The notes beneath the pieces were generated by a model. It ran no database searches, was not told the DNA's origin, and saw only the letters and a list, made by a program, of their open reading frames with translations. A program made the translations under genes and the position numbers. Shown here piece by piece: positions 37,425-64,000 of a stretch of 64,000 nucleotides of DNA (positions are counted from its first letter, which is position 1; every line of letters starts with the position of its first letter). This DNA is from an uncultured Planctomycetia bacterium (lineage in GTDB: Bacteria > Omnitrophota > Gorgyraeia > 2-02-FULL-51-18). Where the stretch lies: positions 2,981 through 66,980 of the forward strand of contig CAYZGM010000001.1 in the NCBI GenBank assembly GCA_964478015.1, written 5' to 3'.

Positions 37425-38537
37425 TTAATTCAATGCAAGGCGGAGGATTTTTTCGGCAGAATTCAGACAACGAATCTTTTCTATCGCCTCGGAGGCTTCG
37501 CGGTAAAGCCGGGTGTCTTTCCGAAAGGCGGTGACCTGCTCCACGACCTCGTTCAGAGATCGGGCCCTTTTAGCCGCGCCGCAGGCCACGACCTGGTCCA
37601 CATTACGTGTTTCCTGCCCGGGCACGGCGCCAAAGAGCACCATGGGTTTCCCAACACAGAGGCTTTCGGTGATCGTGAGGCCGCCGCCTTTGCCCACAAT
37701 AAGGTCGGAGGCAGCCATCAGCTCGTGGATATTGTCAACAAAGCCGTAGAAATGCAGCCAAGGTCTGCCCGCGTATTTGCCGCGGAGCTGGTTTAAAAGA
37801 GTGCCATTTGTTCCGCAAACCACCAGTTGCTGCATCGGCGGTTCCAAAATAGAGAGGCGATCCACCAGCGCGCCCGCAATTCCCACCCCCGCGCCCCCGC
37901 TTGTCACAAGCACCGTGAAAGCCGACGGGTCGAGCCCAAGGCTTCGAGAGGCTTGATCGCGCGTCAACCCGCTTGAAAATTTCGGTTCGATCGGGATGCC
38001 GGTTATGCTGATTTTTTCCTCCGGAACCCCGCGTCGGACCATCGCTTCCTTTGTCAGCTGTGTCGCCACCGCGTAGGAATCAGTTTGGCCGGTGATCCAG
38101 AAAGAATGCGGCATGTAGTCGGTGACCACGGTGATAAGCCGGCATTTCACCCGGCCTGTTTTTTTTAGGTTGCTCACGACCTCGGTCGCCAAAAAATGCG
38201 TGGCGATGACTACGTCCGGCGCTTCAGACTCGACGAATGTTTCCAAGTTTTTCGCAAAAAATTGATTGTTCACACGCCTCAGCGGCCGGATAAAAAAATA
38301 GGCCCAACCCCAATCCGTGACGGCATATAAAAACCCCCATAGCCACGGGATTTGGCGGATCATGAAAAAATAGACCGCCCGGTAGCCGTCGCCGAAACAA
38401 CCGGAAGTCATCTTTAACATGTCGACAAGGCCGACCTCGGAGACACCGGCTTTGTGACACTCGGCCTCCATGGCCTTGGCCGCTTTTTCGTGGCCGTGTC
38501 CCGCACTGGCATAGAGGATCAGGATTTTAGAAGCCAT
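37425..38537 (-). CDS. Monoglycosyl-diacylglycerol synthase-family glycosyltransferase (GT28, MGDG_synth N-domain)
   Basis: MASKILILYASAGHGHEKAAKAM N-terminus, GT-B C-domain GGGLTITESLCVGKPMVL. Confidence 0.8.
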   Translation of the reverse strand: MASKILILYASAGHGHEKAAKAMEAECHKAGVSEVGLVDMLKMTSGCFGDGYRAVYFFMIRQIPWLWGFLYAVTDWGWAYFFIRPLRRVNNQFFAKNLETFVESEAPDVVIATHFLATEVVSNLKKTGRVKCRLITVVTDYMPHSFWITGQTDSYAVATQLTKEAMVRRGVPEEKISITGIPIEPKFSSGLTRDQASRSLGLDPSAFTVLVTSGGAGVGIAGALVDRLSILEPPMQQLVVCGTNGTLLNQLRGKYAGRPWLHFYGFVDNIHELMAASDLIVGKGGGLTITESLCVGKPMVLFGAVPGQETRNVDQVVACGAAKRARSLNEVVEQVTAFRKDTRLYREASEAIEKIRCLNSAEKILRLALN

Positions 38538-39061
38538 TCAGCCGCCTCCTTGAGATCTTTTTTGATGACATCGGGCTTTATCCTCAGGGCAGCAACATCC
38601 TTTTTTTTTAGACGCCCCGAAAGAACAAGAACGGTGCGGCAGCCAAAATTTTTTCCCGCCAGAATATCCTCCTCCGAGTCCCCGATAAAATAGAGTTTCG
38701 AACGGTCGGGACGCCGACCCCGCATCGCTTTTTTAAGCAGGGCGGTTTTAGGTTTCTTGCATTCGCAGCAGTCCGTCGTTTGATGGGTGCAATAATAAAC
38801 TTTTCGGATTCGGCCGCCAACGCGGCGAATCCTTTGAAGCATTTGCCGGGTCATTTGGTTCAGAGTTTTTTTTGTAAGAAGCCCGCGAGAAACGCAGCCC
38901 TGGTTCGAAATCACGACAAGCTCATAACCGGCCCGGGTCAGTTTTTTTATGGCCCCCAGAGCCCGGGGAAAGATTTTGAAATCGGCGAGGCTTGTCACGT
39001 ATCGCCCTTTTCCGGGAAATCGATTGATAACCCCGTCCCGGTCAAGAAATGCGAAGCGCAT
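38519..39061 (-). CDS. gmhB: D-glycero-D-manno-heptose 1,7-bisphosphate phosphatase (HAD IIIA)
   Basis: FLDRDGVIN DxD motif, VVISNQ, C-terminal GDSEEDILAG; the long ORF-track N-extension is rejected and the start set at MRFAFLDRDG. Confidence 0.85.
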   Translation of the reverse strand: MRFAFLDRDGVINRFPGKGRYVTSLADFKIFPRALGAIKKLTRAGYELVVISNQGCVSRGLLTKKTLNQMTRQMLQRIRRVGGRIRKVYYCTHQTTDCCECKKPKTALLKKAMRGRRPDRSKLYFIGDSEEDILAGKNFGCRTVLVLSGRLKKKDVAALRIKPDVIKKDLKEAAEWLLKS

Positions 39062-40073
39062 GGGACTCCAGAACTTCTTTTGCGTTTCGGGCCAACAGGT
39101 CCATGTCGAGCTCTTGCATGCACTGTTCATCAATGGGGCAATCCCGCTTATAACACGGCGAGCAAACGATGGTTGAGACAATTTTACGGCCGCGGCCGTA
39201 CAGTTCAATTTCGGCCGCACAGGTGGACGCAAAATACGCGACGACCGGAACTTTCCCGGCAATCGCCACATGCATCGCGGTGGTATCTCCGGTGATCACC
39301 AGATCGCAGGCATTCACGATCCCCGAAAAAATCTCAATGGGGTGGCTCCCCGTATCGACAACGGGAACGGCGGAGTTTTTGGCAATCCACCGGTTTCTCT
39401 CGACCTCATCTTCGCCGCCCAGCAAAAATACAACGGCTCCAAGATCCTCATGCAATTTTTTGGCCAGACTTACGAGGTGTTCCCTTGGGAGTTTTTTTCC
39501 GGCAAACCGGTTGCCGCTGCCCGTGTTGATGCCAATCACCCTTGTTTTTTTACTTCCGGGATCAAAACCCCTTTCCCGGAGAGCGCCTTCCGCTTTAGCC
39601 AGACTGGCGGTGTCCGGAAAAAAACTATACTCCTCCTTTTGGAACCGGAGGCCGACCTGCTCAAAACTGATTTCCTGGTAGGTTTTTTTGTTTATCCGGA
39701 ATTTCAAATCATCGTCTACGCCGAGCCGGTAAGCATATTCGCTGAGCGCATTCACGGGGCAGACTTTCCCGTCGCGCGTTCTGCCGAAGCCCATTTTTAA
39801 CGAGGCTTTTGTATTCTCGAGCGCCTCCAGGGCTTCGGGCTCCTTGTCCAGGTTGATCACAACATCGTAGCGTAATTTATTCCAATCCTGGTTCCCGGGC
39901 GCGAGAGACTCCAGGCGGTTGATTCGCGGGTTGCGTTCCAGCACGGCGCGATTCCGCGGATCCACCAGCCATGTGATGTGGCACTGGGGGTGCGTCTTTC
40001 GCAAGCCCTCCAAAAGCGGCGTGGTTCGCAAGACATCTCCCAGGGCGCCCAGTTTTACGAGGAGGATTTTCAT
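39042..40073 (-). CDS. ADP-heptose:LPS heptosyltransferase (GT9)
   Basis: MKILLVKLGALGDVLRTTPLLEGLRKTHP is a GT9 N-terminal signature; C-terminal GDTTAMHVAIAGKVP. Confidence 0.85.
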   Translation of the reverse strand: MKILLVKLGALGDVLRTTPLLEGLRKTHPQCHITWLVDPRNRAVLERNPRINRLESLAPGNQDWNKLRYDVVINLDKEPEALEALENTKASLKMGFGRTRDGKVCPVNALSEYAYRLGVDDDLKFRINKKTYQEISFEQVGLRFQKEEYSFFPDTASLAKAEGALRERGFDPGSKKTRVIGINTGSGNRFAGKKLPREHLVSLAKKLHEDLGAVVFLLGGEDEVERNRWIAKNSAVPVVDTGSHPIEIFSGIVNACDLVITGDTTAMHVAIAGKVPVVAYFASTCAAEIELYGRGRKIVSTIVCSPCYKRDCPIDEQCMQELDMDLLARNAKEVLESHALRIS

Positions 40074-40912
40074 TTTGCGGTCCCCTGCTTGGCATCCACG
40101 ACCTCCCAGTACTTAGCCCAATTGATGAAATGCACCCAGGCAAAAAGCACCGAAAATATAAAACCATGCATGCCGTCCAAAAAACCTTTTTTCCGGATAT
40201 AAAATTTTACAAATCGCTTGAGCGGCTTTGTTTTTAGTTCGAACAGGAGTTGATTGGGCGGCAAAAAACCGCATTCCTCGTATTTTGCCCTGGCTTCTCG
40301 CGAAGAATAACCGTTATGGCGGCAGACAAATTGGCTCAGGGATGCGAATGGCCTGTGCTCCACGGGCGCTTCCAGCCGGCCGATGGGACCGTCCACGAGA
40401 AGGGATTCGTGGATCACCCCGTCGTACCTGGCAAGTTTTCGCCGAAAAAGATGCAGGCTGTAATGGTACCAGCCGCCATGCTTCATCCATTTTCCAAGAA
40501 AAAAATTCTTCTTTCTGAATTCAAAGGCCGCAAACGATGTGCCGCGTTCGAGTATTTTTAACACGGCATCCCGGAAAGCGGGCGTCGACTTTTCGTCGGG
40601 ATCAACGTGAAAGCACCAGTCCGAGGCGGCTTTTTCAATTCCCAAATTCCGTTCCGTGCAAAACCGGTAGCCGTCCCACCGGTTTTGAAAGACTTTGTCG
40701 GTGTACCTCCGACAAATTTCAACGGTGCGATCCGAGCTGAACCCGTCAATCACGACGATTTCATCGACCCACGGCGCAACGCTCTGAAGTGTGCCCTCGA
40801 TGAGATCTTCGCAGTTCTTCGTCATGATCACCGCGGAGATGCTTTCGCGGGATTTTTTAGACGGTTCTGGATTTGGCGCCTGAATCTCTTTTGAGTTCCC
40901 AGTACTTTGCAT
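40070..40912 (-). CDS. Glycosyltransferase family 2 (LPS core, KdtX/WaaE-like)
   Basis: AVIMTKNCEDLIEGTLQSVAPWVDEIVVIDGFSSDRT, GT2 DxD region. Confidence 0.8.
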   Translation of the reverse strand: MQSTGNSKEIQAPNPEPSKKSRESISAVIMTKNCEDLIEGTLQSVAPWVDEIVVIDGFSSDRTVEICRRYTDKVFQNRWDGYRFCTERNLGIEKAASDWCFHVDPDEKSTPAFRDAVLKILERGTSFAAFEFRKKNFFLGKWMKHGGWYHYSLHLFRRKLARYDGVIHESLLVDGPIGRLEAPVEHRPFASLSQFVCRHNGYSSREARAKYEECGFLPPNQLLFELKTKPLKRFVKFYIRKKGFLDGMHGFIFSVLFAWVHFINWAKYWEVVDAKQGTAK

Positions 40913-41639
40913 AGGTTAGAAATTGGTACATGCCTGAGTTGACGGCCAAAAAAAGGCCGATGACGCCGTCCTTGTGCCCCTGCTTTGAGACGTAGGCTTT
41001 CCAAAACCGGTCAACCATCTTACGCAGAATTGAAAAAACGCCAACCTTGCGGTTCTCCCGAAACCATTTTTTGGCTTCCAGGTCCGTTTGCCTGTCGAGC
41101 TTCGCGATCGCATCCGTAAAATCACGGTAGGTGTAATGCAGAATATCGTTCTTCAGCATGCCTCGCGGATCTTGCATGTAGGCCTGGGGATGCACCTCCG
41201 CCAGTTCGTCGTACCGAAAAGCATCCTTGCGGAAAAGCCGGAGCTGCGCCGAGGGGTACATGCCTCCGTAGCGCACCCACACCCGACCCATAAAATTGCG
41301 TCTGGGGATCGCGTACCCATTGCAGGACGGGTTGTTCTTCAGAGTTTCGATAATTTCTTGCTTCAGTTCAGGCGTGACGCGCTCATCCGCATCGAGACTC
41401 AAGATCCAGCTATTTTTTGCCATCTGGTAAGCAACGTTTCGGTGTTTGCCCTCCACGTCCATTTTTCGAACATGCACGGAAGCACCCAGCGAGCGCGCGA
41501 GCGCCACAGTGTTATCGGTCGACTCATCGTCCAGCACAATGACTTCATCCGCCCAATCCACGCTTTTTAAGCAATCGGAAATGCGCGAAGCCTCGTTTTT
41601 GGTGATCACCACCACGGAAAGCGCGATTTTTTGATCCAT
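40857..41639 (-). CDS. Glycosyltransferase family 2
   Basis: LSVVVITKNEASRISDCLKSVDWADEVIVLDDESTDNT. Confidence 0.8.
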   Translation of the reverse strand: MDQKIALSVVVITKNEASRISDCLKSVDWADEVIVLDDESTDNTVALARSLGASVHVRKMDVEGKHRNVAYQMAKNSWILSLDADERVTPELKQEIIETLKNNPSCNGYAIPRRNFMGRVWVRYGGMYPSAQLRLFRKDAFRYDELAEVHPQAYMQDPRGMLKNDILHYTYRDFTDAIAKLDRQTDLEAKKWFRENRKVGVFSILRKMVDRFWKAYVSKQGHKDGVIGLFLAVNSGMYQFLTYAKYWELKRDSGAKSRTV

Positions 41640-41650
41640 AACGCTTTATC

Positions 41651-42745
41651 TTATGAGATTTTAGCGATGGCAGCCAGAACTTTCTGCACACTTAACTGTT
41701 CCAGGCACCGGCGCTCATGCGGGCACGGGGGAAAATGGAACCGAGAGTAGCACGGCCTGCAGGCCACGGGCTCGCATACGACCTCCACATCCGCGTAGGC
41801 ACCATACGGGCCGTATACTTTTTCGTCCACCGGCCCGAAGATGGGGACCGTCTTCACCCCCAGCGCATGCGCCATATGGATCAAGCCACCGTCGTTGCCC
41901 AGCAGAAACTGCACGCGTTTTAAGAGCGCCGCCACCACTCCCAGGGATTGTCCGCACACCATTTTGTTTGGAACCGCGAGGTTCCTGCGAACAATTTCAA
42001 GGAGCTCTCTTTCGCTTTCGTCCCCGATTAAAAGAACGGCCGCTTTTGATTCAACGCACCAGGTGTTTGCCGCCTCGGCAAATTTCTCCGGATTCCACTG
42101 TTTATAAATTGCGTTTACTCCCCAGCTCTTTCCCCCGCCCGGAGCCATGGCCATGAACGAGCCGGCGTCTTCGAGGGCCTCATGCTGAAAAAAAAGAGAG
42201 GCTCTTTTCTCCAGCTCCGGAGAAATGCTTAGCAGTGGTCCGGTCCCGGCGGCCGGAGGCCGGATCCCGAGAGACTGCAGAATCTCCAGCTGAGATTCCG
42301 CGACGGACTTTTTTTCGTAGCCCTCGAACGGTGTTTTTTCGTTCAAAAAAAATCCCCGGCCACGGTAATCAAAGCCTATCCGGCGATGGATTCCGGCGCA
42401 AAAGCCTAAAAAACTGAATTCACGACCCAGGGAGTAGTCGACCATCACGTCATACTTCTTTTCGGCGATGGATCGGATGAGCCGGCGGTATTCCCGCAAG
42501 AAGAGAACAGGGTTGCTTGTGCGTATCTTGCGAAACCGATCGCGGTCAAGTTCATGGACGGTCGTCACGCCGGGGTACAGGGTAATTAATTCTTTCACAC
42601 GCTCATTGCAGAGAAGCCCTATCTCGACCCGGGGAAGACTCTTTCTCGCCGCTTCCACGGCAGCCAGAGAAAAAAGGACATCCCCTATCCCAAAAGGATT
42701 CGCAAATAGGATCCTCTTTGCTCCGATGGTCATAGAACCCCGCAC
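41651..42745 (-). CDS. Heptosyltransferase-family glycosyltransferase (GT9)
   Basis: KRILFANPFGIGDVLFSLAAVEAARK; C-terminal GNDGGLIHMAHALGVKTVPIFGP. Confidence 0.8.
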   Translation of the reverse strand: MRGSMTIGAKRILFANPFGIGDVLFSLAAVEAARKSLPRVEIGLLCNERVKELITLYPGVTTVHELDRDRFRKIRTSNPVLFLREYRRLIRSIAEKKYDVMVDYSLGREFSFLGFCAGIHRRIGFDYRGRGFFLNEKTPFEGYEKKSVAESQLEILQSLGIRPPAAGTGPLLSISPELEKRASLFFQHEALEDAGSFMAMAPGGGKSWGVNAIYKQWNPEKFAEAANTWCVESKAAVLLIGDESERELLEIVRRNLAVPNKMVCGQSLGVVAALLKRVQFLLGNDGGLIHMAHALGVKTVPIFGPVDEKVYGPYGAYADVEVVCEPVACRPCYSRFHFPPCPHERRCLEQLSVQKVLAAIAKIS

Positions 42746-43710
42746 AGCGCGGCATAAACCTCATCCGCGGTGATGTCCTGAATATTCTTGTGAATGGCGA
42801 TGCTGCCCGGGCTGCGCGGTCCCCACCGAAGAGGATCGGATCCTCGGATATTTTTTGCAAACAGGGCTACGACGGGTTTTCCTTGTATCCAAGCCACATG
42901 CACGGGACCGCTGTCACAGGAGACAAGTGTTTTGACGCGGCTCAGCCCAAGGAATGCCGCAAGCTCTTTTAAACTTAAAACGCCTGTCCAGTCCGTGACA
43001 GGCTCTTCGCATCGACGGACGACCTCTCGTGAAATCGCCGTCTCTTCGGAACCGCCTATTAAAACGGGGGCGTAGCGGCCTCCCCGCGCCAGTCTTTGGC
43101 AAATCTCCAAAAACTTTTCGCCATCCCAACGCTTTGCGGGGTTGCTGGTCCCGGGGTGAATGGCCACAACCATTTTATCCTTGGGTATTTCCTTGGCCAG
43201 GCGCGAGTCTATCCGCCGGACCGTTTCCTCATCCGCGAGCGGCCCCCAAGAGCCGTCCCACTTTTTTGATGAAACAAGACCGGCCAGACGAAGGTTGGAG
43301 TCGATCTCATGCTGCAGCTGGGCCGCCTTGTTATCCGGCAAAGAACGGTTCAGCAAAAAACCCCATTTTCGTCGCCACCCTACGCGGAGCCGGATCCCGG
43401 CGCTGAAAAGCATCCAGTGAAAAAACTTATGCGGGTTGGATGCGATCGCCAGGTCAAACTTTGCGCTCCGGATCTGACGCAGAAGCCCCCGCCGATAGGC
43501 GGCGCTTCTCTCCAGCTCGGCTCCATCAATCTCCAAGACCTCATCGATGTCCGGGTGGCCTTTTAAAATTCCGGCCACGGAGCGGTCAACCATCCATGTT
43601 AGCCAGCATTTTGGGTAGGTTTGTCTCAAGAGGTGGACGGCGGGCAAATTCATCAACACATCACCCAAACGATCCGTTCGGATGAAAAGGATCCTGCGAA
43701 TTTTTATCAT
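42730..43710 (-). CDS. ADP-heptose:LPS heptosyltransferase (GT9)
   Basis: MIKIRRILFIRTDRLGDVLMNLPAVHLLRQTYP; C-terminal SCDSGPVHVAWIQGKPVVALF. Confidence 0.85.
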   Translation of the reverse strand: MIKIRRILFIRTDRLGDVLMNLPAVHLLRQTYPKCWLTWMVDRSVAGILKGHPDIDEVLEIDGAELERSAAYRRGLLRQIRSAKFDLAIASNPHKFFHWMLFSAGIRLRVGWRRKWGFLLNRSLPDNKAAQLQHEIDSNLRLAGLVSSKKWDGSWGPLADEETVRRIDSRLAKEIPKDKMVVAIHPGTSNPAKRWDGEKFLEICQRLARGGRYAPVLIGGSEETAISREVVRRCEEPVTDWTGVLSLKELAAFLGLSRVKTLVSCDSGPVHVAWIQGKPVVALFAKNIRGSDPLRWGPRSPGSIAIHKNIQDITADEVYAALCGVL

Positions 43711-54307: not shown

Positions 54308-54992
54308 GGTAGGAGGATAGCACTGAATAGATGAAACCCTCCATTCCGTCTCGGAATCCCTGCTTCAAAAAATAGATGTCCAGAAAGCGATAAATCGGTC
54401 TTCCGAGCACATGCGCCATTCCAATCGTTTTCTCCTCTGACGGCTGGGCAATGGCCGTATACAATTGCAGTTTTTTCCAATAATCCTCCAACGTTTGAAA
54501 AGAAATGTGCCGTAAGGGCTCTCGCAGCAACCCTGTTTTTCCGTCCACCCTCAATTCTTCATGAACCGGGTTCTTAAAAACACCCCGCCCTCTCCGGAAT
54601 AGGCGAACAGGCTTATCATTTTGAAGGCCGCTGTACCGGAATTCCTTGTTGAAGAGCCGCGTATGACGCAATACTCGGTAGGCAACATCGGCGGTCTCAG
54701 AGGAAATCGTCCTTTGAATTTCACTCGCAAGCGCGACGCTCACCCGCTCATCCGCATCCACGGATAAAATCCACTCCCCCTTGGCCAGCGAAAGAGCAAA
54801 ATTTTTCTGGGATGAAAAATCATCGAATTTTCTGAGCAGCACGTTTGGCGTGAATCGCCTTGCGATTTCGCAGGTCCTGTCCGCGCTGTGGCTATCGACT
54901 AGAATTATTTCATCGGCAAACTTCAGGGCCGTCAGACAATCGGCGATATTATTTTCCTCATTCAGGGTGATAACAATAGCCGACAGCCTCAT
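54252..54992 (-). CDS. Glycosyltransferase family 2
   Basis: MRLSAIVITLNEENNIADCLTALKFADEIILVDSHSADRT. Confidence 0.8.
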   Translation of the reverse strand: MRLSAIVITLNEENNIADCLTALKFADEIILVDSHSADRTCEIARRFTPNVLLRKFDDFSSQKNFALSLAKGEWILSVDADERVSVALASEIQRTISSETADVAYRVLRHTRLFNKEFRYSGLQNDKPVRLFRRGRGVFKNPVHEELRVDGKTGLLREPLRHISFQTLEDYWKKLQLYTAIAQPSEEKTIGMAHVLGRPIYRFLDIYFLKQGFRDGMEGFIYSVLSSYHEFVRWAKRWEKGVLAGE

Positions 54993-55939: not shown

Positions 55940-57776
55940 GGGGCAGCTCATACAAATAAATTCGTGAATTGTCTTTGCCATGGGCAAAATTTTCTTCGTG
56001 CAATAGTTTGGCTTGGCGCTGCGAGAGCGCGCTCTGGAGAACACTCGTCGCCCCCTCGGAAGTTTGCGTCGCCCTAAGAAGCGCATGGGTAAATCCTCGC
56101 GCTCTTATCTCATCGATTAATTTCTCGGCGCTAAGCAATGCAAGTTGCGGTTCAAGCCCCAAGAGAATATCCAATCGCGCGGAACGCCTGTCCAGGTAGT
56201 ACTGAGACGGCTCGTTCTCCAAAAGAATGGCGGCGCTTGGGTCCAAATGTTCATTGATCCAGGCCTGCATGGCATAAGAGCGCTCGGTTTTTTCCAGGTA
56301 TTTCGCCTTGGATGGATACGCAAGGTATCGTGATAATTTTCCGTTATAGTAAAAAATAAATAGGGCTTGCGTGAAAATGGCCGCGATCATCAGTGCTTTT
56401 AATGCCTTCCACGACTTGTCTCGATAACCAAATAGCTCTTCGGCTGCCAGGCCGCACAAAAGAACCAGCACAGGAACCAGTGGAAAAAGGAATCGGAAAT
56501 GCTGGACAAGATAGAACCAAAAAAGGAATTGGGAAATAATAAGAAAAAGAAGCCTTGCCTTGTCCTCTTTTTTCATGCGAACGGCTACGAGGATAGGCGT
56601 CAGCATCAGGACAAGGATCCCGACCTGGCTGTCTCCGCCGCCAAAACGCTCCGGATCCAAAAAGAAAAGAAAGGGCGCTCGAAAAAGCGCCGCCACTCCT
56701 CGGCCGATTCCGGTCTGGTCGCGTATATCACTTACCCACGCATGCCCGGTGAACCATGCGTTAAAGTAAGGAAAGATCGGATTCCCCGTGGCCAGGTAAG
56801 AACGCAAATACCACCCTGCGCACGGCAGGAGCGCCACGCAAGAGAAAATAAGCAAAACCCTGAACCCGCGCACCCCCTTTTCACGAAATGTTTTCCGGGC
56901 GAGCATCAGAAATAAAGCCGCCACGAATGGCGCGGCCAACAGCTTTACGGCCAAAGCGACGCCCGAAAAAAGCGCCGTTGCCATAAGAAACAATTCTTTC
57001 GATTCGTGAAAATAGCGCCACATGGCAAAAAAAGATAAGAAAAGAAAAAAACTCAGCGCGATGTCCGTGTAAGCATAGGGAGCTTGCGCCATGAATCCGG
57101 TCGTGGTTAACAAGAGCAGTGCCGCGGCGAGGCCTCTGGCGCGCGGCTCAAATAAGCGGCATGCGGAGGTCAACATTCCCGCGGTCCCCAAGAGAAAACC
57201 AAGGTTGTAAAGCTTGGAGAAAATTTCGCTCCGAAAAAGAAGCCCTTGTAAATACAGCATTTGGATCAACAACGGTTGGAAGGCGTTCACGCTGTAGGGG
57301 ATCGGATAAATCGCGCCCTTTTGGATGAACGCTTTTGGGCAGTAGAAATGATAGGCCAGCGCGTCCCTGCCCGGCTGCCCGGACGCGATTGCTAACAAGG
57401 TGACGAGAAGTGAAAGTGAGGCCACCCATGTTAAAAAAACCTCGAAGCCGCCGCGGAACGTAAAAAGTACTTTTAGATATCTTCCAAATGACGCAAGCCA
57501 CTCAAAAAACGATCGTAGGGTCGCAATCCACACCCCGATCACAACGATGGATAGCGCCCCGACTGACCAGAACCGAAGACCCGATAAAAGACCCAACAGC
57601 CAAATTGCGGAGGCAAAGAGCGCTGTCCCGAGACCCAGCGAAAAACACCCCTCTTCCATCTCATCCAGAAAAGGGTATCTCGCCAGCAAAAATAATAGAC
57701 GGCCGGTCTGCAGCAGCGCCGCCGCAAAAACCGCCCACAGTGGAAGCGTAAAAATTAGTTCAACGAAAGAACTCAT
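55932..57776 (-). CDS. Large polytopic membrane protein, GT-C-like (ArnT/PMT-like glycosyltransferase, or O-antigen polymerase/ligase-like)
   Basis: At least 12 hydrophobic helices over 614 aa, with a soluble C-terminal domain; no sharp family motif, so the call rests on architecture and context only. Confidence 0.45.
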   Translation of the reverse strand: MSSFVELIFTLPLWAVFAAALLQTGRLLFLLARYPFLDEMEEGCFSLGLGTALFASAIWLLGLLSGLRFWSVGALSIVVIGVWIATLRSFFEWLASFGRYLKVLFTFRGGFEVFLTWVASLSLLVTLLAIASGQPGRDALAYHFYCPKAFIQKGAIYPIPYSVNAFQPLLIQMLYLQGLLFRSEIFSKLYNLGFLLGTAGMLTSACRLFEPRARGLAAALLLLTTTGFMAQAPYAYTDIALSFFLFLSFFAMWRYFHESKELFLMATALFSGVALAVKLLAAPFVAALFLMLARKTFREKGVRGFRVLLIFSCVALLPCAGWYLRSYLATGNPIFPYFNAWFTGHAWVSDIRDQTGIGRGVAALFRAPFLFFLDPERFGGGDSQVGILVLMLTPILVAVRMKKEDKARLLFLIISQFLFWFYLVQHFRFLFPLVPVLVLLCGLAAEELFGYRDKSWKALKALMIAAIFTQALFIFYYNGKLSRYLAYPSKAKYLEKTERSYAMQAWINEHLDPSAAILLENEPSQYYLDRRSARLDILLGLEPQLALLSAEKLIDEIRARGFTHALLRATQTSEGATSVLQSALSQRQAKLLHEENFAHGKDNSRIYLYELPHE

Positions 57777-57866
57777 AGACTTTCGGAATCACGTAACTCT
57801 GCATGTAAAGGCAAAAAAATAACGCACCCCAAGCGATCGAAAACCACCTGAAGAATCCGCCGTTTT

Positions 57867-58916
57867 TCATGGAACCCTCTTTCCTGAACCAAGAAGATCA
57901 AGCATGGCATCCATTTCCCTGAGGCCGTCCAACTGAGTCGCCAGCATGAATCGCCACCGAGACCTTTTGCGATCGAGCATCTCGCCCACGACGTAAAGGA
58001 GCCTTTTCAGCACATCCATCTGGCCGTAAACTAGCAGCTCCTCAAAGGAATACCCCATCTTTCTTGCGCGAAGTATTTTTTTAAGCCGTAGGAGATGATT
58101 CCCAAATGCCGGGCCTTTTTTGCCGACCAACAGCTCGCGCGCACACTTAAAGACCGAGAAACCAAGGCTCAGCTCAAGCGTTGTCGTTCGGAAACTATCA
58201 AAATCCGCCAAGAGCGACAGGCGATTGTTTTGGAACAACACATTGAGCGGATGGATATCTACGTGGAAAACGGCGCGATGCAAATTTTTTTCATTCTTTT
58301 CATAAATCCGCCTTAGATGGGTGAATTTTTTTAGCACATACGCGATCTCCGCCTTATGGAGGCCTGTCCCGCTGGGAAAATTTCTCAGCTTCCTTATCAC
58401 ACGGGTGTCGGAGATCTCAAAAAAATTTCTTGACCCGACCCGGGAAGAAAATTTCTTTGGTGAGTTCCTAATACAGTACGCGGCAAGCCGTCGTTCATGC
58501 CCCAGGAGATTCGCCCATCGCCGTGAGGAGGCGCCAAGATACGAGCCCTTTTTAAAATGGGTCAGGCACCAGGCATGCCCCCCAAAAAGAAAGACGAGTT
58601 TCTTTTTTTTATTTGGGCAGAAGCGCGCGGCCGGAAATCCGCCTGCCGAAAGGCGCTGAACCCACGCGGCCTGAAGCTCAAGCGCAACGGCTTTGGATGC
58701 ATCCACCCGCTTCAGAACAAAGGCGCCGCGCCGGCACGAAATCTTCCAATTTTGGCTATTGACCCCAAAGGCGTTTACCGCGGAGATTCGTGTCGGCTCT
58801 AGTGCCGGGAACTGATGCCGAATGACTTCCCGGATGCGCTCTGTCTGCGATGAGCCGACGGGAAGTAAGCTCGGTCTCCGCACCGAAAACCTATTTTTTT
58901 TAAAAAGGGTTGACAT
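57867..58916 (-). CDS. Aminoglycoside-phosphotransferase/choline-kinase-fold kinase (probable sugar or LPS-core kinase)
   Basis: HVDIHPLNVLF (HxDxxxxN catalytic loop) and LADFDS (DFD-like metal-binding motif). Confidence 0.7.
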   Translation of the reverse strand: MSTLFKKNRFSVRRPSLLPVGSSQTERIREVIRHQFPALEPTRISAVNAFGVNSQNWKISCRRGAFVLKRVDASKAVALELQAAWVQRLSAGGFPAARFCPNKKKKLVFLFGGHAWCLTHFKKGSYLGASSRRWANLLGHERRLAAYCIRNSPKKFSSRVGSRNFFEISDTRVIRKLRNFPSGTGLHKAEIAYVLKKFTHLRRIYEKNEKNLHRAVFHVDIHPLNVLFQNNRLSLLADFDSFRTTTLELSLGFSVFKCARELLVGKKGPAFGNHLLRLKKILRARKMGYSFEELLVYGQMDVLKRLLYVVGEMLDRKRSRWRFMLATQLDGLREMDAMLDLLGSGKRVP

Positions 58917-58922
58917 TAAATA

Positions 58923-59702
58923 TTAGGGGCTCTTACGCACCATGCCTCCATCCACCGGGATCACGGTCCCGCTAATGAAAGAGGCGTCCTCCGATGCCAA
59001 AAATACGGCCAGGTGCGCGAACTCCTCCGGGCTGGCAATCCTCTGAAGCGGAATCGTCTTGGCGGCAATCTCCAGGATCTCTTTCTCCGTTTTTCCGGAA
59101 CTTTTGGCCTGATCTTTAAATAGAGACAGAAGTCGATCCGTGAGCACCGCCCCCGGACACACCGTATTCATCGTGATGCCATCCTTTCCCGCAAGATGCG
59201 CCGCGCATTTAATGGCATTGATAAGCATGGCCCGGTAACCGGCCGACAAGATCATCCCTACGGTTGGCTCCACGGCGATCGTCGAACTGACATTGATAAC
59301 CCGCCCCCACTTTTTCTTTCGCATTCCCGGCAAAAAAGCCTTTAAAAGCATCAAAGAGCTTTTAAACTGCTGCTGAAAGGCGCTCTCCCAGTCCTCCACC
59401 GAAATATCGTCGAACGTGCCGGCCTTTGGCCCTCCGGTGTTGAGAACAAGAACATCCGGAGCTCCGGGGCCATTATTGATGGATAAGATAAGGTCCTCGA
59501 CCGACTTGGATGAAGAATAATCGGAGGCGAACGCATAAACTTTTCGGCCCGTATATTTATTTTTTAAAGCCGCTTCCGTCATCCCCAGGCGCTCCCGGTC
59601 CCGGGCCGTGAGAATGACGTCCATGCCGCTTTTCAAGAGGCCCTCTGCGACGGCTTTCCCGATTCCGGCGCTCGAACCTCCGACCAATGCGAGTTTACTC
59701 AT
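58923..59702 (-). CDS. SDR-family oxidoreductase
   Basis: LALVGGSSAGIGKAVAEGL (TGxxxGIG-type Rossmann motif); catalytic Tyr region in YRAMLINAIK. Confidence 0.85.
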   Translation of the reverse strand: MSKLALVGGSSAGIGKAVAEGLLKSGMDVILTARDRERLGMTEAALKNKYTGRKVYAFASDYSSSKSVEDLILSINNGPGAPDVLVLNTGGPKAGTFDDISVEDWESAFQQQFKSSLMLLKAFLPGMRKKKWGRVINVSSTIAVEPTVGMILSAGYRAMLINAIKCAAHLAGKDGITMNTVCPGAVLTDRLLSLFKDQAKSSGKTEKEILEIAAKTIPLQRIASPEEFAHLAVFLASEDASFISGTVIPVDGGMVRKSP

Positions 59703-59719
59703 GACTGGACTCCTGTTCT

Positions 59720-60436
59720 TTACGTTTCCTGATATGTCTTCAGCCGATCTTTTAATGTTTGAGAAAATCCCGCCTGATCAGCGTTTTCTAAGAGTTCCTC
59801 CAAATAGGCGCCCAGCCCCCGGTCCTGGGCATGAGCAAATCCAAGAAGTTTTTCTCGAATCTCGTGAACGTACTCCCGCCGGACCGCTTCGTCAGGATTG
59901 AGACATAAAACAAAAAGATTATCCATTTTGTCCAAGAGCTTAATGAGCATAACCTCTTTTTCCCCCACCCCCAAACGGTTGTAATAGGCCTCCTTTTGCG
60001 CCGAAAAAGGGATGCTGCGATCCACTAACAAAATACGTATTGCGGATGAAACCCAGCCGCCAAAGGCCCTTTCAATTTCAGGCAGAGACACGGAGGTCAC
60101 TTCCGGCACGTTGTGCAGGACCGCCGTCACCAACGCATCCGCTCGCACCGAAGGATCGATGCGAAGCAAGAAATTTGCCACGCGAATCGGGTGACTGAGA
60201 TAGCTCGATCTCAAAGCGCTCTTTAAAAAATCAAGGGTCTTGGCATAATCCAGAGCCCTGTGGATCTCATTGTCAAAACGTTCAAATTTTTTTAGATCGT
60301 TCAAAAAAACTCGCTCCGTGTCTGTTGCGGATACACACAGACTTTCTATTTTCTTTAGTCTCTCCGTCTCGACCGATTCAAAGACCGTACGCCCCCTAAG
60401 AACCAGATCCATGAAGCGCCTTGTATTTTCTTTCAA
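59720..60436 (-). CDS. HD-domain protein (RelA/SpoT-hydrolase-like small HD), with Asp-to-Asn change in the HD dyad
   Basis: HPIRVANFLL ... AVLHNVPE ... KLLDKMDNL parallels the SpoT-type HD motifs, but reads HN instead of HD. Confidence 0.55.
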   Translation of the reverse strand: MKENTRRFMDLVLRGRTVFESVETERLKKIESLCVSATDTERVFLNDLKKFERFDNEIHRALDYAKTLDFLKSALRSSYLSHPIRVANFLLRIDPSVRADALVTAVLHNVPEVTSVSLPEIERAFGGWVSSAIRILLVDRSIPFSAQKEAYYNRLGVGEKEVMLIKLLDKMDNLFVLCLNPDEAVRREYVHEIREKLLGFAHAQDRGLGAYLEELLENADQAGFSQTLKDRLKTYQET

Positions 60437-61139
60437 GCGTAAGCCAATCCTCCGGGGTATCCACGTCTACGGCAAGAGAGTCGGGAACGGAGTAGCAATT
60501 CAATCCTTGTTTTACATTGAACCAATGCCCGCCGTGACGAACCAGCCTGGCGTAGTCCAAAAAATAGAACAAGCCCGCATCCACCTGAGCCTGCGGCAGT
60601 TTTTGCGAAAAGGTCAAAAGTTTTTTTGGAAATAAGGGTTTCCACCGGCCATGGGGGCTTTGAACAAGCGCGCGGTATGGGCTATGTGAAAATTTGGTCG
60701 TGGCCACAAGAACAGAGGCCATTTTTTTTAAAAATTCCCTGTGCGCTTTTTGGTAAGTGCCTGCGTCAACCAATGCTGCCGTGGCCAGCGCGAAGAGGAC
60801 GGTCGTGCCAGTCCCTTTCATTCCCAGGGCTCTCAAATATCGCGGGATGTCCTTTTTTAGAAGTTCCATCAACGTTGTGTGATCATCTGAAAACTTGGGG
60901 TCGCGTAGATCCAAAACCAACGCCCCGGCAGCCTCTGCGATTCGCTTGATCCCCGGGTCATCCGTCGAGACGGCGACCGTTTCCGCCACGCCTGATTTCT
61001 GAATCGCCTCGATGACGTGACAAATGACTGGCTTGCCGCCTAGACGCTTCACGTTTTTTCTGGGAACTCTTTTCGAGCCAGCTCTGGCCGGAATATAGGC
61101 AATCAAAGCCACCGTCACCCCCTCAATTCTTCTGCACAA
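60396..61139 (-). CDS. CMP-sugar (acylneuraminate/pseudaminate-type) cytidylyltransferase
   Basis: VALIAYIPARAGSKRVPRKNVKRLGGKPVICHVIEAI is the CTP_transf_3 signature. Confidence 0.8.
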   Translation of the reverse strand: MCRRIEGVTVALIAYIPARAGSKRVPRKNVKRLGGKPVICHVIEAIQKSGVAETVAVSTDDPGIKRIAEAAGALVLDLRDPKFSDDHTTLMELLKKDIPRYLRALGMKGTGTTVLFALATAALVDAGTYQKAHREFLKKMASVLVATTKFSHSPYRALVQSPHGRWKPLFPKKLLTFSQKLPQAQVDAGLFYFLDYARLVRHGGHWFNVKQGLNCYSVPDSLAVDVDTPEDWLTLERKYKALHGSGS

Positions 61140-63177
61140 CCGTAAACTGTGTGATATCTGCGTCGACCGCGGAATTAACTTTTTCGGCGCGCAGGACTTT
61201 CAGGCCCATCTCTTGATAAATCCGGGCATGGTCATAACCATACCTCGAAAAGTTGATGTCCGTATCTTCCTTGTGGACCACATATTTTTTGCTTACGCGG
61301 AGGATCTCGCGGCGCATTTTATCCGCTTTTTTAGGGGGATTGTGGAGAATAACGTTGGATGTGAATACCACATCAAAAGTACCGTCAGGAAACGGCAGGC
61401 TCTCGGCATCCCCTTGGATCAGCGTGATTCCCTCAAGACCAGAAAGATACTCCTTTGCTTTCTCCAGCTGAGTTCGGCTGAAGTCGATCCCGGTTAGCGG
61501 CGCAGCCGTGAACTCTCTCAAAGATTTAAGGACTTTGCCGTACCCGCAGCCCACCTCCAAAATCGACGCCCCCCCTAAACCGCCTATCTCTCTTGCCAAA
61601 AAACGGCTGGTCTCCCCGCGGTCCTTGCGGGACTCCTGCTCTTCAAAGTAACGTTTTCCTCCTCTGCGCTCCCAATAGCGGCGTATATTGCTGTATAGCA
61701 AAAGTCGCCCCAACGTTGGGTTCTGTTGAAAAATACCCACAAGAAGACGACTTGTTCCAAAACGCCGCTGCCCATAAAAAAGCAAGGGGGCGCTACCCAA
61801 CATTGCCGCAAGAGGGCGAAAAAATTGGGCATGGGATGAATTCTCTGGCAGCCATCGATCGAGCAGAAAAAGAAGAATCAGCGGATAAGAGGCACAGAAA
61901 ACAACTTTAAAAATTTCCGCAAAAACGGTCGCACGGCCAAACAATGTCCGAAGCGCCAGCGCGGCATAGACAACGTACAGGGTGAGATACGCCCCGAAAG
62001 TGACCCAGGCAACGGAAGTGATGCCGCCACCGCCGGCTATTACCGCGGCGTTGATGATCAGACATGCGACCCCCAGGAATCCCTGGACTGGAATCATCCA
62101 AAGATATTTTTTAAATGTGACCAGTGTATCGGACATGTTATTCAAAAGAATCATAAAAAGCGTTGCAAACAAACCAACCTTCATTGCCGAAATGCCGTCG
62201 ACATACTGAGGTAAAAAAGTACGGACAGCCCAGGGCCCAAGCATCCAGAGGAACGCCACCATGAGCGGCATGTAGACTGCCATGAACAGCGTTGGGTAGA
62301 CCGCGAGTTTTCTTAATCTAGCGGAATCGTTCGAGGCCCCATACGTTTCATTCAAATAAGGGAAAGTGATCACGCCGAGGTTATTGGGAAAAGCTGTAAC
62401 CAGACTGCTGGCCATAATCACGAGACTATAGATTCCAAGCGCTTTGAAACCGAGTAGCGCGCTGATCGATATTTTGTCCACACTGCTAAGAAAGGTAAAA
62501 AAAATATTCACCACAATCAAACCGACGCCCATTTTGAACAAAGATGAAAGCTCCCGCCAGTCCCAGTCGAGCCGGAAGCGAACATTTGAAAATCTTAATA
62601 CATAGATGAAGTTGAGGACAAAACTCAGGATCATGGATAGGTAATATCCGTATAGACCTAAGCCTGTGATCAACAGCACCGTGAGGACCGCGTTTGCGAG
62701 CGCCGAGTAAACATTAAACCGATTGATGAATAAAAACTGCTTCTCTGCCCTCAAAAGGCTGATGCAAAATGTGGATGCCCGTTGAAAAAAGCTCAAAAAA
62801 GACAATGCAAGCAGGCTGTAAAAAAACAGTTCCCCCATTTTTCCACGCAGCACAAATGCGGCCACTGCCATCGCCAGGCTCAGGAACAAGGCGATCACGA
62901 TCGTAAAAGTGAAGGAGACGTTTCGGATGCTCTCCGCGCGATCAAAGCGCTGTCTGCCTTTTTCAAATGGAATCTCACGGCCCGCCGCGTTGGCGAGACC
63001 AAGGTTTGAATATTTTGTGTAATTTAAAATGACCTGCAGGCTTACCCAAACACCCATTTGCTCCGGCCCAAGAACATTCCGGATGAAAATGGCAAGCCCG
63101 ATGGTGATAAGCTGCATAAAAAAATAGCCCGCCGAGTAAGACGCAAATTCACGCGTGAGTGTACGGCTGAAGCTCAT
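61123..63177 (-). CDS. Fusion protein: Wzx-like MOP/polysaccharide flippase (N-terminal, about 450 aa) plus class I SAM methyltransferase (C-terminal, about 200 aa)
   Basis: 12-14 TM helices typical of the polysaccharide-biosynthesis Wzx family, then ILEVGCGYGKVLKSL motif I and FDVVFTSNVILH motif II in the same uninterrupted ORF. Confidence 0.75.
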   Translation of the reverse strand: MSFSRTLTREFASYSAGYFFMQLITIGLAIFIRNVLGPEQMGVWVSLQVILNYTKYSNLGLANAAGREIPFEKGRQRFDRAESIRNVSFTFTIVIALFLSLAMAVAAFVLRGKMGELFFYSLLALSFLSFFQRASTFCISLLRAEKQFLFINRFNVYSALANAVLTVLLITGLGLYGYYLSMILSFVLNFIYVLRFSNVRFRLDWDWRELSSLFKMGVGLIVVNIFFTFLSSVDKISISALLGFKALGIYSLVIMASSLVTAFPNNLGVITFPYLNETYGASNDSARLRKLAVYPTLFMAVYMPLMVAFLWMLGPWAVRTFLPQYVDGISAMKVGLFATLFMILLNNMSDTLVTFKKYLWMIPVQGFLGVACLIINAAVIAGGGGITSVAWVTFGAYLTLYVVYAALALRTLFGRATVFAEIFKVVFCASYPLILLFLLDRWLPENSSHAQFFRPLAAMLGSAPLLFYGQRRFGTSRLLVGIFQQNPTLGRLLLYSNIRRYWERRGGKRYFEEQESRKDRGETSRFLAREIGGLGGASILEVGCGYGKVLKSLREFTAAPLTGIDFSRTQLEKAKEYLSGLEGITLIQGDAESLPFPDGTFDVVFTSNVILHNPPKKADKMRREILRVSKKYVVHKEDTDINFSRYGYDHARIYQEMGLKVLRAEKVNSAVDADITQFTVVQKN

Positions 63178-63743
63178 GCAGAAACCTCCACGCCGGATGT
63201 CCGCCCCTTTTGACTCATCAACTGCTCGACGGGCCGTTCATCCTGAAGAGGAATAATTGGCTGATAAACGCCTGGGTTCTTTCGGAAATCAAGCAAAAAT
63301 TGGTCTATCCTGTTGAATGCGTCTTCGAAACTTGAAAACTGTTGAAGAGATTTTCCAAATACCGCCGCACACTCACGGTCAATCAAACCCTCAATGAAGT
63401 CCGGATACAGAGCAAGAACCGGCAAACCGCTGGTGGCAACCTCGTAGAGCGCCGTCGTGGGCCTGTCTAAAATGACCGCATCTACGGTCATCAAACTTTC
63501 CCTGACTGACCGGTGATTATCCGTCATGTGGCTTGCTTTTTTTTCCCTTAAATACGGCAGCACCGACGTTTCGGCGTAACGATTCACCCGACCGGCCGAG
63601 TGCTTGTAGATAAAATTAAAATCTTTCTTTTGAGCGAAAAAATCGATCAATTTTTTTTGGTATTCAAAGTACCAGACAGCCGGGTAAGTCATGCAGTTAA
63701 AATATCTCTGATGAATTAAAAGTTTTGTCGGAATATACAACAC
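63174..63743 (-). CDS. C-terminal segment of a TagF/capsule-type transferase-like protein (GTG start); probably the 3' part of a frameshifted longer gene
   Basis: VLYIPTKLL... loosely resembles the TagF-family KxxLYAPTWR region; an upstream open frame continues to the window edge in a different frame. Confidence 0.35.
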   Translation of the reverse strand: MLYIPTKLLIHQRYFNCMTYPAVWYFEYQKKLIDFFAQKKDFNFIYKHSAGRVNRYAETSVLPYLREKKASHMTDNHRSVRESLMTVDAVILDRPTTALYEVATSGLPVLALYPDFIEGLIDRECAAVFGKSLQQFSSFEDAFNRIDQFLLDFRKNPGVYQPIIPLQDERPVEQLMSQKGRTSGVEVSA

Positions 63744-64000
63744 AGTCGGCGCATCTCTTTTCGGTGCCTGAGATTTGCGCTGCGCGTCTCTTGCTGTTTC
63801 TTTCAGAAAATGGGGGGCGGTAAGGAGACGACATGCGCTAACATAGGTCTCTTTCAGGCTGCGCTTAAATTTTTCACTCGAAAGCCCGTCCGTTGTTAAA
63901 TACCAATCAAATGCATCAATATCGGAGACTTGCCACGCAACGTCCCAAAATACGTCACTGCCGTGCTGGATTCCGACGGTTTCTATTCCTTTTCTCTTGG
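63705..64000 (-). pseudogene. Partial upstream reading frame (runs off the window) that is out of frame with the 63174..63743 ORF; candidate 5' half of a frameshifted TagF-like gene
   Basis: Manual translation of minus frame: ...VGIQHGSDVFWDVAWQVSDIDAFDWYLTTDGLSSEKFKRSLKETYVSACRLLTAPHFLKETARDAQ..., stops at about 63705. Confidence 0.3.

Follow-up and report, generated by a model that had tools for sequence, protein, structure and literature searches.

Gene clusters for Wzx-dependent surface glycans, such as those for colanic acid (with WcaJ) and for the heptan O-antigen of Helicobacter pylori, where heptose-rich chains lie within an undecaprenyl-linked O-antigen (PMC5371381), combine a WcaJ-type initiating phosphoglycosyl transferase (PGT), many glycosyltransferases (GTs) of families GT2 and GT4, the flippase Wzx and genes for nucleotide sugars. 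We have analysed a bacterial cluster of this kind, which lies at positions 37425-64000 of a 64,000-nt stretch of contig CAYZGM010000001.1 (the whole stretch is called the window hereafter) and shares these features, together with a predicted use of heptose in a glycan built on a lipid carrier. Unlike the described clusters, Wzy, Wzz and WaaL are missing from the window, the block around PGT is interspersed with four GT9 genes, Wzx is fused to a methyltransferase, and the organism is uncultivated. Overall, the cluster belongs to the well-known Wzx-type class of surface-glycan loci, and its residual novelty lies in two uncharacterised, conserved sub-modules.

One of them (module 2 below, the proposed sugar assembly line being module 1) is built around a B12-binding radical S-adenosylmethionine (SAM) enzyme, termed rSAM. 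Like the ArnC/ArnT, PpgS/Rv3779 and GtrB/GtrC systems, it places a GT2 whose top matches include enzymes of the DPM1/ArnC type (GT2c) and a PMT_2-type membrane glycosyltransferase (GT-C) in one cluster, and the deformylation by ArnD and the epimerisation by DprE1/E2, in which a sugar is modified at the polyprenyl-phosphate stage, offer an analogy that would apply to it. It differs from these systems in that the tailoring would be done by rSAM and a class I methyltransferase (MT11), that GT2c has no transmembrane (TM) helices, and that no dedicated flippase has been identified. To our knowledge, such tailoring of a polyprenyl-phosphate sugar has not been described before; in the literature on Omnitrophota (radical SAM enzymes and glycosyltransferases, lipopolysaccharide (LPS)) and on cobalamin radical SAM enzymes (polyprenyl, O-antigen) we found no description of this module or of module 3. 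The hopanoid cyclitol-ether pathway (HpnI/HpnK/HpnJ) is also similar, with HpnJ as the best named family for rSAM and with a GT2 beside a class B radical SAM enzyme whose substrate, established or proposed, is a lipid-bound amino sugar; there, the B12-binding HpnJ contracts the ring of lipid-linked glucosamine. On the other hand, hopanoid genes are missing here, and hpn clusters have neither the partner methyltransferase nor GT-C.

The other sub-module (module 3) is a four-gene cytidylyltransferase cassette with an orphan GT-B-fold protein. It resembles the pseudaminic (Pse) and legionaminic (Leg) acid loci of acetamidino type (PseB/C/H/G/I/F; WbuX/HisH/HisF2) in its PseF-like cytidylyltransferase, in the Pse-methylase-like domain on Wzx, and in the Pse-type genes of a related locus (L091). 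Its conserved trio of an HD-fold protein with HN in place of HD (HD(HN)), a short-chain dehydrogenase/reductase (SDR) and a kinase, with the orphan GT-B, is outside any described Pse or Leg pathway. In addition, several GT9 paralogs and a kinase in one locus recall the waa core locus of Escherichia coli and Salmonella (WaaC, WaaF, WaaQ, WaaP, WaaY).

The cluster and its proposed assembly line

We give an even chance to the explanation that the genes of the region are densely packed and co-transcribed as a single glycan cluster, whose product is a long oligosaccharide with no or few repeats on undecaprenyl diphosphate, and to which two add-on modules are joined. The open reading frames (ORFs) of 37425-64000 form a minus-strand chain without break, with 25 complete genes up to 63177 and a 26th cut by the window end. 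For family calls, Pfam gathering scores, NCBIfam equivalog cutoffs, PDB matches and counts of TM helices were used, and start codons within the cluster were corrected via independent gene calls on metagenome contigs with identical proteins. For every minus-strand ORF of 37425-63177, Pfam gave a match that exceeds the gathering score, so the large minus-strand chain of glycan genes that was reported in a first-pass annotation of this DNA is real. With the corrected starts, 15 of the 24 junctions overlap, and the widest gap is 90 nt. The many overlaps of 4-20 nt noted at first therefore exist, but they range from 1 to 56 nt, and this packing, as well as the minus-strand run itself, is a trait of nearly the whole window rather than of the cluster alone. 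The GC content is level throughout the region without any sign of a foreign island, and a horizontally acquired island has been rejected since compositional evidence for it is absent.

In transcription order, i.e., from high to low coordinates, the complete genes are Wzx-MT, the cytidylyltransferase (CTP_transf_3), the HD protein (HD_4), SDR, the APH kinase, GT-C, GT2e, GT2d, MT25, GT4c, WecB, GT2c, rSAM, MT11, GT9d, GT4b, GT4a, PGT, GT9c, GT9b, GT2b, GT2a, GT9a, the HAD phosphatase GmhB and a GT28-like gene (Table 1). Family matches agree with the first-pass calls for gmhB, GT-C, WecB, the APH kinase, SDR, the HN-variant HD protein and the cytidylyltransferase, and likewise for the Wzx-methyltransferase fusion, the two class I methyltransferases and the B12-binding radical SAM enzyme beside a methyltransferase. 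The counts of two families had to be changed: there are five GT2 rather than six, and the four supposed GT4 are three GT4 and one GT28/MGDG-synthase-like GT-B. The latter overlaps gmhB by 19 nt and scores 216 bits with the NCBIfam diglucosyl-diacylglycerol synthase model, not reaching its cutoff of 500. The start of GmhB was moved to Met71 of the longest ORF, with the HAD motif DRDG lying after the corrected start; only the domain model was passed, as NF006506 gave 149.7 bits against a cutoff of 178.

The initiating transferase had been called WbaP-like. It is indeed an initiating PGT, with 4 TM helices, but of the WcaJ type, as it passes both TIGR03025 (EPS_sugtrans, 460 bits vs 296) and the WcaJ equivalog TIGR03023 (437 bits vs 411). 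The Wzx part of Wzx-MT has at least 10 TM helices, and its methyltransferase domain gives a Pse-associated-methylase-like match of 47 bits. Together with Wzx, PGT and WecB, both of which pass their cutoffs, are the hallmark of a Wzx-dependent pathway that uses undecaprenyl diphosphate. The polytopic membrane proteins of the whole window are only PGT, GT-C, Wzx-MT and an LPG_synthase_TM protein.

GT2d and MT25 are separate ORFs in the window (53660-54992), which overlap by 56 nt, while in relatives they are one polypeptide (479 aa in L005, 446 aa in L088 and L091). The window pair aligns to the fusion in two frames, and the break falls inside the interdomain linker of ~10 residues. As three independent assemblies show this split, it is a genuine gene fission or a tolerated frameshift. 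Because of the fusion in relatives, MT25 is tied to the sugar added by GT2d and not to a heptose. The methyl-heptoses that the first-pass annotation proposed to look for lose their ground in this way, since MT11 is tied to rSAM, the third methyltransferase is fused to Wzx, and none is linked to a GT9.

The four annotated GT9 genes are all present, full length (326-382 aa) and free of internal stops, and they share a pairwise identity of just 20-24%. Six positions are invariant across them (G12, D13, K193, E223, D263 and H268), corresponding to an N-terminal GD, the lysine of K(K/R)W, a glutamate and DxGxxH. These motifs line up with the same motifs in 3TOV and in WaaF (1PSW), reading GD, KRW and DSGPxH in GT9c, and GT9a has N- and C-terminal matches to the HepI/HepII models. 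Relatives hold orthologs of three of the four. The four are ancient paralogs, neither fragments nor pseudogenes; this check had been set beforehand, and all four proved intact with their catalytic positions kept. Their scores with the NCBIfam models for heptosyltransferases I/II/III are 63-92 bits, and since none reaches the cutoffs (134.6-185.3), their donor and acceptor are predicted rather than assigned. The use of ADP-heptose is suggested by context, i.e., by gmhB in the cluster and by gmhA and hldE-II in the window.

The two latter genes were found, as annotated, upstream in the window, ~14-15 kb from the cluster. Only part of the ADP-heptose pathway lies in the window: HldE-II scores above its cutoff, GmhA slightly under its own, and GmhB matches at the domain level; HldA and HldD were not found within the window and may be elsewhere in the genome. 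The PfkB gene at 20714-21622 was considered as the missing heptose-7-phosphate kinase (rfaE domain I) and rejected, scoring 33 bits where 345 are required. Given the intact GT9, GmhB and the several SAM methyltransferases, it is still fair to predict a glycan that contains heptose and is heavily decorated; the window covers its heptose supply only in part.

Two proposed add-on modules

The three cysteines of the rSAM motif CxxxCxxC (C234, C238 and C241) are invariant in 13 homologs. HpnJ is the best NCBIfam model (247.5 bits, cutoff 577.6), followed by BchE (183 bits), and AprD4 is the best PDB match (6FD2, 111 bits), with TsrM and TokK structures at 33 bits. None of the methylase-type models was passed: PhpK gives 137 bits (cutoff 600), Sden_1168 113 (575) and HpnR 77 (650). 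These scores place rSAM outside every characterised equivalog family. An HpnJ ortholog was rejected by the distance to its cutoff, and neither hpn nor shc genes were found in the window or in related loci. An assignable methylase was also rejected, as the non-methylases HpnJ, BchE and AprD4 outscore the methylase models. HpnJ and BchE are known as non-methylases, and HpnJ rearranges lipid-linked glucosamine (PMC9204698). Since rSAM is closest to HpnJ, BchE and AprD4, the C-methylation capacity claimed in the first-pass annotation is not established.

The GT2c gene overlaps the rSAM gene by 50 nt. Its top NCBIfam matches are AglJ (84 bits), PpgS (69), ArnC (59) and a dolichyl-phosphate hexose transferase, all under their cutoffs, and the top PDB matches are DPMS (5MLZ), ArnC (8VXH) and GtrB (5EKP); the protein is soluble. 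MT11 follows rSAM directly in L003, L005, L007, L011-L014, L016 and L036, and fusion proteins of rSAM and a methyltransferase also exist (P0037, P0058). GT-C has ~11 TM helices and a soluble C-terminal domain, and its orthologs are found in L005, L088 and L091; no PDB entry matches its sequence. A 549-aa protein of L007 was considered as a further GT-C ortholog and rejected, being a fusion of a pyruvate-kinase barrel and an adenosine 5'-phosphosulfate (APS) kinase.

We have further surveyed the neighbourhoods of rSAM homologs in 80 genome loci from many phyla. At up to 300 nt from the rSAM homolog, 28 of them have a DPM1-like GT2, and at up to 3 kb, 41 do. For GT-C-like membrane proteins the number at up to 3 kb is 14 loci, among which are L003, L011, L012 and ten from Nitrospirota; Pfam adds PMT_2 proteins in L005 and L014. 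In close relatives WecB adjoins the module. Fusions of rSAM and GT2 were not found among the 80 loci. In the ten Nitrospirota loci (L052, L056, L059, L060, L063, L067, L069-L071 and L082) the rSAM homolog (~45% identical) is followed by a ~670-aa membrane protein with weak similarity to GT-C, and about half of them (L056, L059, L063, L069, L070) also have a 233-aa GT2 alongside. Judged by these similarities, the window's trio would thus have a functional counterpart in another phylum. A separate observation is that in L015, L018, L021, L029, L036, L049 and L080 two to six paralogs of B12-binding radical SAM enzymes are interleaved with GT2 genes, so that this type of tailoring in glycan clusters seems to have expanded in Omnitrophota, Planctomycetota, Elusimicrobia and Patescibacteria.

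The LPG_synthase_TM (MprF flippase-like) protein of the window lies at 28721-29791, 8 kb from the cluster, and a homolog (L014:1987-2937) stands directly beside the PMT_2 GT-C inside a glycan cluster. This protein is a candidate flippase for the polyprenyl-phosphate sugar of module 2. A search with ARAGORN and Rfam found no cobalamin riboswitch near the rSAM gene, and one tRNA (given below) as the only RNA element of the window.

For module 3, the order of the cassette CYTIDYLYLTRANSFERASE, which consists of cytidylyltransferase, HD(HN), SDR and kinase, is kept at 36-65% identity in L091 and L093, and the four genes recur in L094. With PseF (TIGR03584, 160 bits, under the cutoff of 205.7) the cytidylyltransferase forms a full-length alignment, and its PDB match is NeuA (9FTB). 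The HD protein matches MESH1 and CG11900 in the PDB, with LHNVPE replacing the HD...ED signature (HN at residues 107-108). As HN is kept in the orthologs of L088, L093 and L094 at 30-69% identity, it is a family trait. That the kinase is a WaaP-type heptose kinase was considered and rejected by fold comparison: its fold is that of a small-molecule kinase, the nearest ones being homoserine kinase, NahK and choline kinases, while WaaP is distant. Only 12 homologs of it were found among 5.8 billion protein clusters, and a metagenome scan gave one locus.

The last ORF, tabulated initially as 63174-63743 (189 aa), runs in an open frame as far as the window end. It measures at least 560 aa on a contig from the same population, L087 adds ~860 nt past the window, and the full-length protein P0144 has 638 aa; since the window holds the C-terminus of such a protein, the cluster continues past 64000. 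This orphan protein has no Pfam or NCBIfam match and only 15 homologs among the same 5.8 billion clusters. Its AlphaFold2 model (pLDDT, the predicted local distance difference test, 85) has a GT-B fold, nearest to UDP-GlcNAc (N-acetylglucosamine) 2-epimerases, TagF and TarL, and its gene is always directly upstream of Wzx.

Immediately upstream of the cassette, L091 encodes PseC (459 bits, cutoff 423.5), at which its contig ends, HisH, WbuZ/HisF2 and WbuX (323 bits, cutoff 203). It also has there an ortholog of the orphan GT-B (43% identical) and the same Wzx-MT fusion (683 aa). In the window itself, PseB, PseC, PseH, PseG, PseI and any NeuB-type nonulosonate synthase were not found. The gene neighbourhoods suggest that the cassette and the GT-B make and attach a cytidine-activated substituent, which is probably a nonulosonate of acetamidino, pseudaminic-acid type according to the matches in L091. 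Alternatively, the substituent could be a phospho-alcohol that is activated with CDP and that a TagF-like enzyme would transfer. Besides, L094 (110-2164) encodes a 684-aa protein in which a cytidylyltransferase domain is fused to a class III aminotransferase, with a sulfotransferase gene coming next. This fusion adjoins a second copy of the kinase-SDR-HD-like-cytidylyltransferase cassette and is reminiscent of the PntC-AEP (2-aminoethylphosphonate) transaminase fusions of phosphonate decoration.

Proposed pathway and its competitors

The substrates, the step order and the final acceptor given here are all predicted from the gene content, order, conservation, fusions and folds described above. 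The WcaJ-type PGT would prime undecaprenyl phosphate with a hexose-1-phosphate, and the three GT4, four GT2 (a, b, d and e) and four GT9 would extend the chain in the cytoplasm, using UDP-sugars, including UDP-ManNAc (N-acetylmannosamine) from WecB, and ADP-heptose (GmhB, with GmhA and HldE-II 15 kb away). MT25 would O-methylate the sugar added by GT2d, and the Wzx-methyltransferase fusion would flip the product. In module 2, GT2c would make a polyprenyl-monophosphate sugar, possibly derived from ManNAc, rSAM and MT11 would modify it while it is lipid-bound, and GT-C would transfer it to the glycan at the outer face of the inner membrane in the manner of ArnC/ArnT. Such a side branch seems, by analogy, the most economical reading of module 2, and it might tailor the sugar by radical C-methylation, deoxygenation or rearrangement of the ring, then by methylation, before delivery to the surface. 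In module 3, the cassette would make a cytidine-nucleotide-activated unit, most likely a nonulosonate of the pseudaminic-acid type, with the remaining nonulosonate genes, to judge from the syntenic L091, beyond the window end, and the 638-aa GT-B would transfer it. We consider it possible, but only tentatively so, that GT2c, rSAM and MT11 (with GT-C and usually WecB) perform an undescribed tailoring of a polyprenyl-phosphate-bound sugar and that the cassette with the orphan GT-B provides a new nucleotide-activated surface substituent.

Several points weigh against this pathway. The classical acceptor of GT9 enzymes is Kdo2-lipid A (Kdo, 3-deoxy-D-manno-oct-2-ulosonic acid) rather than an undecaprenyl-linked intermediate, and part of the four, or even all, could therefore act in the core. 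Apart from PGT, WecB and HldE-II, the sub-family scores are under the equivalog cutoffs, and hence no donor sugar is established. GT2c, being without TM helices, could be an ordinary GT2 that extends the glycan, and the cytidylyltransferase is under the PseF cutoff with no nonulosonate synthase within the window. No match to Wzy_C/O-antigen polymerase, WaaL, Wzz or an export gene was found in the window, so that lipid A-core, a protein and a lipid are all candidate acceptors of the glycan. The phylum assignment (Omnitrophota, most likely) was made from cluster genes only; EF-Tu, PFK and AccC, housekeeping proteins of the window, each form a singleton protein cluster.

A competing explanation, to which we assign a real but limited chance, is a composite LPS locus. 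GT9a-c (perhaps also GT9d) and GmhB would then serve the inner core as heptosyltransferases on Kdo2-lipid A, like WaaC/WaaF/WaaQ, and PGT, GT4, GT2 and Wzx would make a separate O-unit, ligated by a WaaL encoded elsewhere. The waa loci of E. coli have three GT9 genes, and in our cluster all four GT9 match the heptosyltransferase I/II/III models best, GT9c aligns to WaaF (1PSW), gmhB is embedded among GT9a-c, and the closest relative L007 has a Wzy_C/O-antigen-ligase gene right after PGT. However, those best matches stay far under the cutoffs (63-92 bits against 134-185), no Kdo transferase, lpx or kds gene is found in the window, and the positions of GT9d inside the PGT/GT4 block and of GT9c right after PGT fit an undecaprenyl-linked intermediate. 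The same Wzy_C family gene of L007 also speaks against a product other than LPS, i.e., a glycan attached to protein, or else a lipoglycan or capsule with a glycolipid anchor, which we regard as improbable. Its attachment would be made by GT-C or by an oligosaccharyltransferase encoded elsewhere, or the GT28/UgtP-like enzyme would make a diacylglycerol glycolipid as anchor. This would agree with the lack of WaaL and Wzy in the window, with a conserved GT-C of the PMT (protein mannosyltransferase) family, with an MGDG/diglucosyl-diacylglycerol synthase-like gene that overlaps gmhB at the operon end, and with the resemblance of the orphan GT-B to the teichoic-acid polymerases TagF/TarL; but PMT_2-type GT-C normally use polyprenyl-phosphate monosaccharides and not undecaprenyl-diphosphate oligosaccharides, and no target protein or anchor has been identified.

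A reading along the lines of the first-pass annotation, which we now find quite improbable, is a heptose-rich chain made by the GT9, with rSAM C-methylating and the class I methyltransferases O-methylating the heptoses, and the APH kinase phosphorylating heptose like WaaP. The number of GT9 genes with gmhB in the cluster and the three class I methyltransferase domains are in line with it, as is the fact that most class B radical SAM enzymes are methylases (PMC9204698). On the other hand, the relation of rSAM to HpnJ, BchE and AprD4 and the fusion of MT25 to GT2d in relatives are against it, rSAM is genetically tied to a polyprenyl-phosphate-sugar-type GT2 and WecB and not to GT9 alone, and the kinase, far from WaaP in fold, travels with the cytidylyltransferase cassette.

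Relatives, gene coordinates and significance

Proteins identical to those of the cluster are encoded on contigs from the 0.2-um fraction of the Hainich groundwater well H51 and on an 86-kb NCBI contig. The nearest species representative is a metagenome-assembled genome of Candidatus Omnitrophota (L007), which is syntenic and has an rSAM of 81% identity, followed by an Omnitrophota genome with a 1.59-Mb contig (L003/L008, Bin_62) and then by the JGI/Logan contigs L005, L088 and L091. The block GT2e-GT2d/MT25-GT4c-WecB-GT2c-rSAM-MT11-GT9d-GT4b-GT4a-PGT is syntenic in L005, L007, L088 and L091 at 40-89% identity. These clusters are of similar length, and glycan loci of 20-40 kb are common, so the description "exceptionally large" does not hold. 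Past PGT, L005 continues with two GT9 and two GT2, while L007 has its Wzy_C/O-antigen-ligase family gene directly there. The comparison across genomes that had been proposed for finding the variable parts showed that the core is conserved and that the decoration genes differ, with carbamoyl or sulfate genes in relatives. L007 and L003 have a carbamoyltransferase, genes for the synthesis of 3'-phosphoadenosine 5'-phosphosulfate (PAPS) and a CDP-alcohol phosphotransferase, and L005 has a TagF-like gene and a CDP-alcohol phosphotransferase beside the cytidylyltransferase. Hence, as a surface-glycan locus, the cluster is typical of its lineage, its core being conserved and its tailoring variable. 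We have also observed in L003/L008 (4282-6490) a CDP-alcohol phosphotransferase, an NTP_transferase and a homolog of 3,4-dihydroxy-2-butanone-4-phosphate (DHBP) synthase beside Wzx, a trio that suggests an unusual nucleotide-activated four-carbon substituent.

Table 1 Coordinates of the cluster genes and of the two ADP-heptose supply genes in the window, with the main matches
Feature	Positions	Strand	Match or remark
HldE domain II-type adenylyltransferase	22650..23156	-	rfaE_dom_II 206 bits (cutoff 181.5)
GmhA isomerase	23120..23689	-	gmhA 203 bits (cutoff 209); PRK13936 227 bits
GT28/MGDG-synthase-like GT-B (UgtP-like), last gene of chain	37425..38537	-	MGDG_synth 98 bits
GmhB-like HAD-IIIA heptose-bisphosphate phosphatase, 180 aa	38519..39061	-	TIGR01656 117.8 bits (cutoff 84)
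GT9a	39042..40073	-	PF01075 51 bits (cutoff 22)
GT2a	40070..40912	-	PF00535 55 bits
GT2b	40857..41639	-	PF00535 70 bits; L005 ortholog 78% identical
GT9b	41651..42745	-	PF01075 78 bits; L005 ortholog 48% identity
GT9c	42730..43710	-	PF01075 101 bits; best PDB 3TOV (GT9), 1PSW (WaaF)
WcaJ-type large PGT (polyprenyl-phosphate hexose-1-phosphate transferase)	43750..45105	-	Bac_transf 234 bits + CoA_binding_3
GT4a	45166..46272	-	Glycos_transf_1 77 bits; exact copy on Hainich groundwater contigs
GT4b	46269..47375	-	Glycos_transf_1 116 bits
GT9d	47379..48527	-	PF01075 102 bits; orthologs in L003, L005, L007, L014
Class I SAM methyltransferase MT11	48524..49291	-	Methyltransf_11 83 bits
B12-binding radical SAM enzyme (class B; rSAM)	49295..50800	-	Radical_SAM PF04055 88 bits; B12-binding PF02310 56 bits
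GT2c, DPM1/ArnC/PpgS-like GT2	50751..51491	-	NCBIfam and PDB best matches
WecB, non-hydrolysing UDP-GlcNAc 2-epimerase (to UDP-ManNAc)	51488..52636	-	TIGR00236 378 bits (cutoff 210)
GT4c	52590..53663	-	Glycos_transf_1 123 bits
Class I SAM methyltransferase MT25	53660..54307	-	Methyltransf_25 63 bits
GT2d	54252..54992	-	PF00535 58 bits
GT2e, 315 aa by independent gene calls (L001, L090)	54992..55939	-	PF00535, Glyco_tranf_2_3
GT-C-fold membrane glycosyltransferase (PMT/PMT_2-like)	55932..57776	-	PMT PF02366 31.3 bits (cutoff 22.7)
APH/choline-kinase-fold small-molecule kinase, 338 aa, very rare family	57867..58883	-	
Classical SDR oxidoreductase	58923..59702	-	adh_short_C2 140 bits
SpoT/MESH1-like HD-fold protein, HN for HD	59720..60412	-	HD_4 29.5 bits
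PseF/NeuA-like CMP-sugar-acid cytidylyltransferase	60396..61112	-	CTP_transf_3 71 bits
Wzx-type flippase + C-terminal class I methyltransferase fusion (Wzx-MT)	61123..63177	-	Polysacc_synt_3 43 bits (cutoff 23), Methyltransf_25
Orphan GT-B-fold protein, C-terminal 275 codons of 638 aa, cut by window end	63174..64000	-	

Several other genes of the window were noted. Two tandem genes of the GalT/HIT family (29939-31965; galactose-1-phosphate uridylyltransferase-like, DUF4921/DUF4931) might form a pair for the salvage of nucleotide sugars. At 17517-20388, the gene of a dGTPase-like HD/HD_assoc protein overlaps that of a 563-aa AAA_16 STAND-like ATPase, and at 11534-12972 the only plus-strand genes (an AAA_22 ATPase and a 222-aa ORF) interrupt the minus-strand run; the genes of both places could be related to defence or mobile elements. 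The sole RNA gene found by ARAGORN and Rfam in the window is a tRNA-Gly(CCC) at 20635-20708 on the minus strand.

Overall, the cluster is useful for annotating the cell envelopes of Omnitrophota and changes no concept. Both leads, i.e., the rSAM unit and the cytidylyltransferase cassette, are open to reconstitution in E. coli, for which the organism itself need not be cultured, and either of them could reveal new sugar chemistry. If the reading of module 2 is true, its chemistry would be widespread in uncultivated bacteria, as rSAM with a GT2, and in some loci with a GT-C, is found in Omnitrophota, Nitrospirota, Planctomycetota and other phyla.

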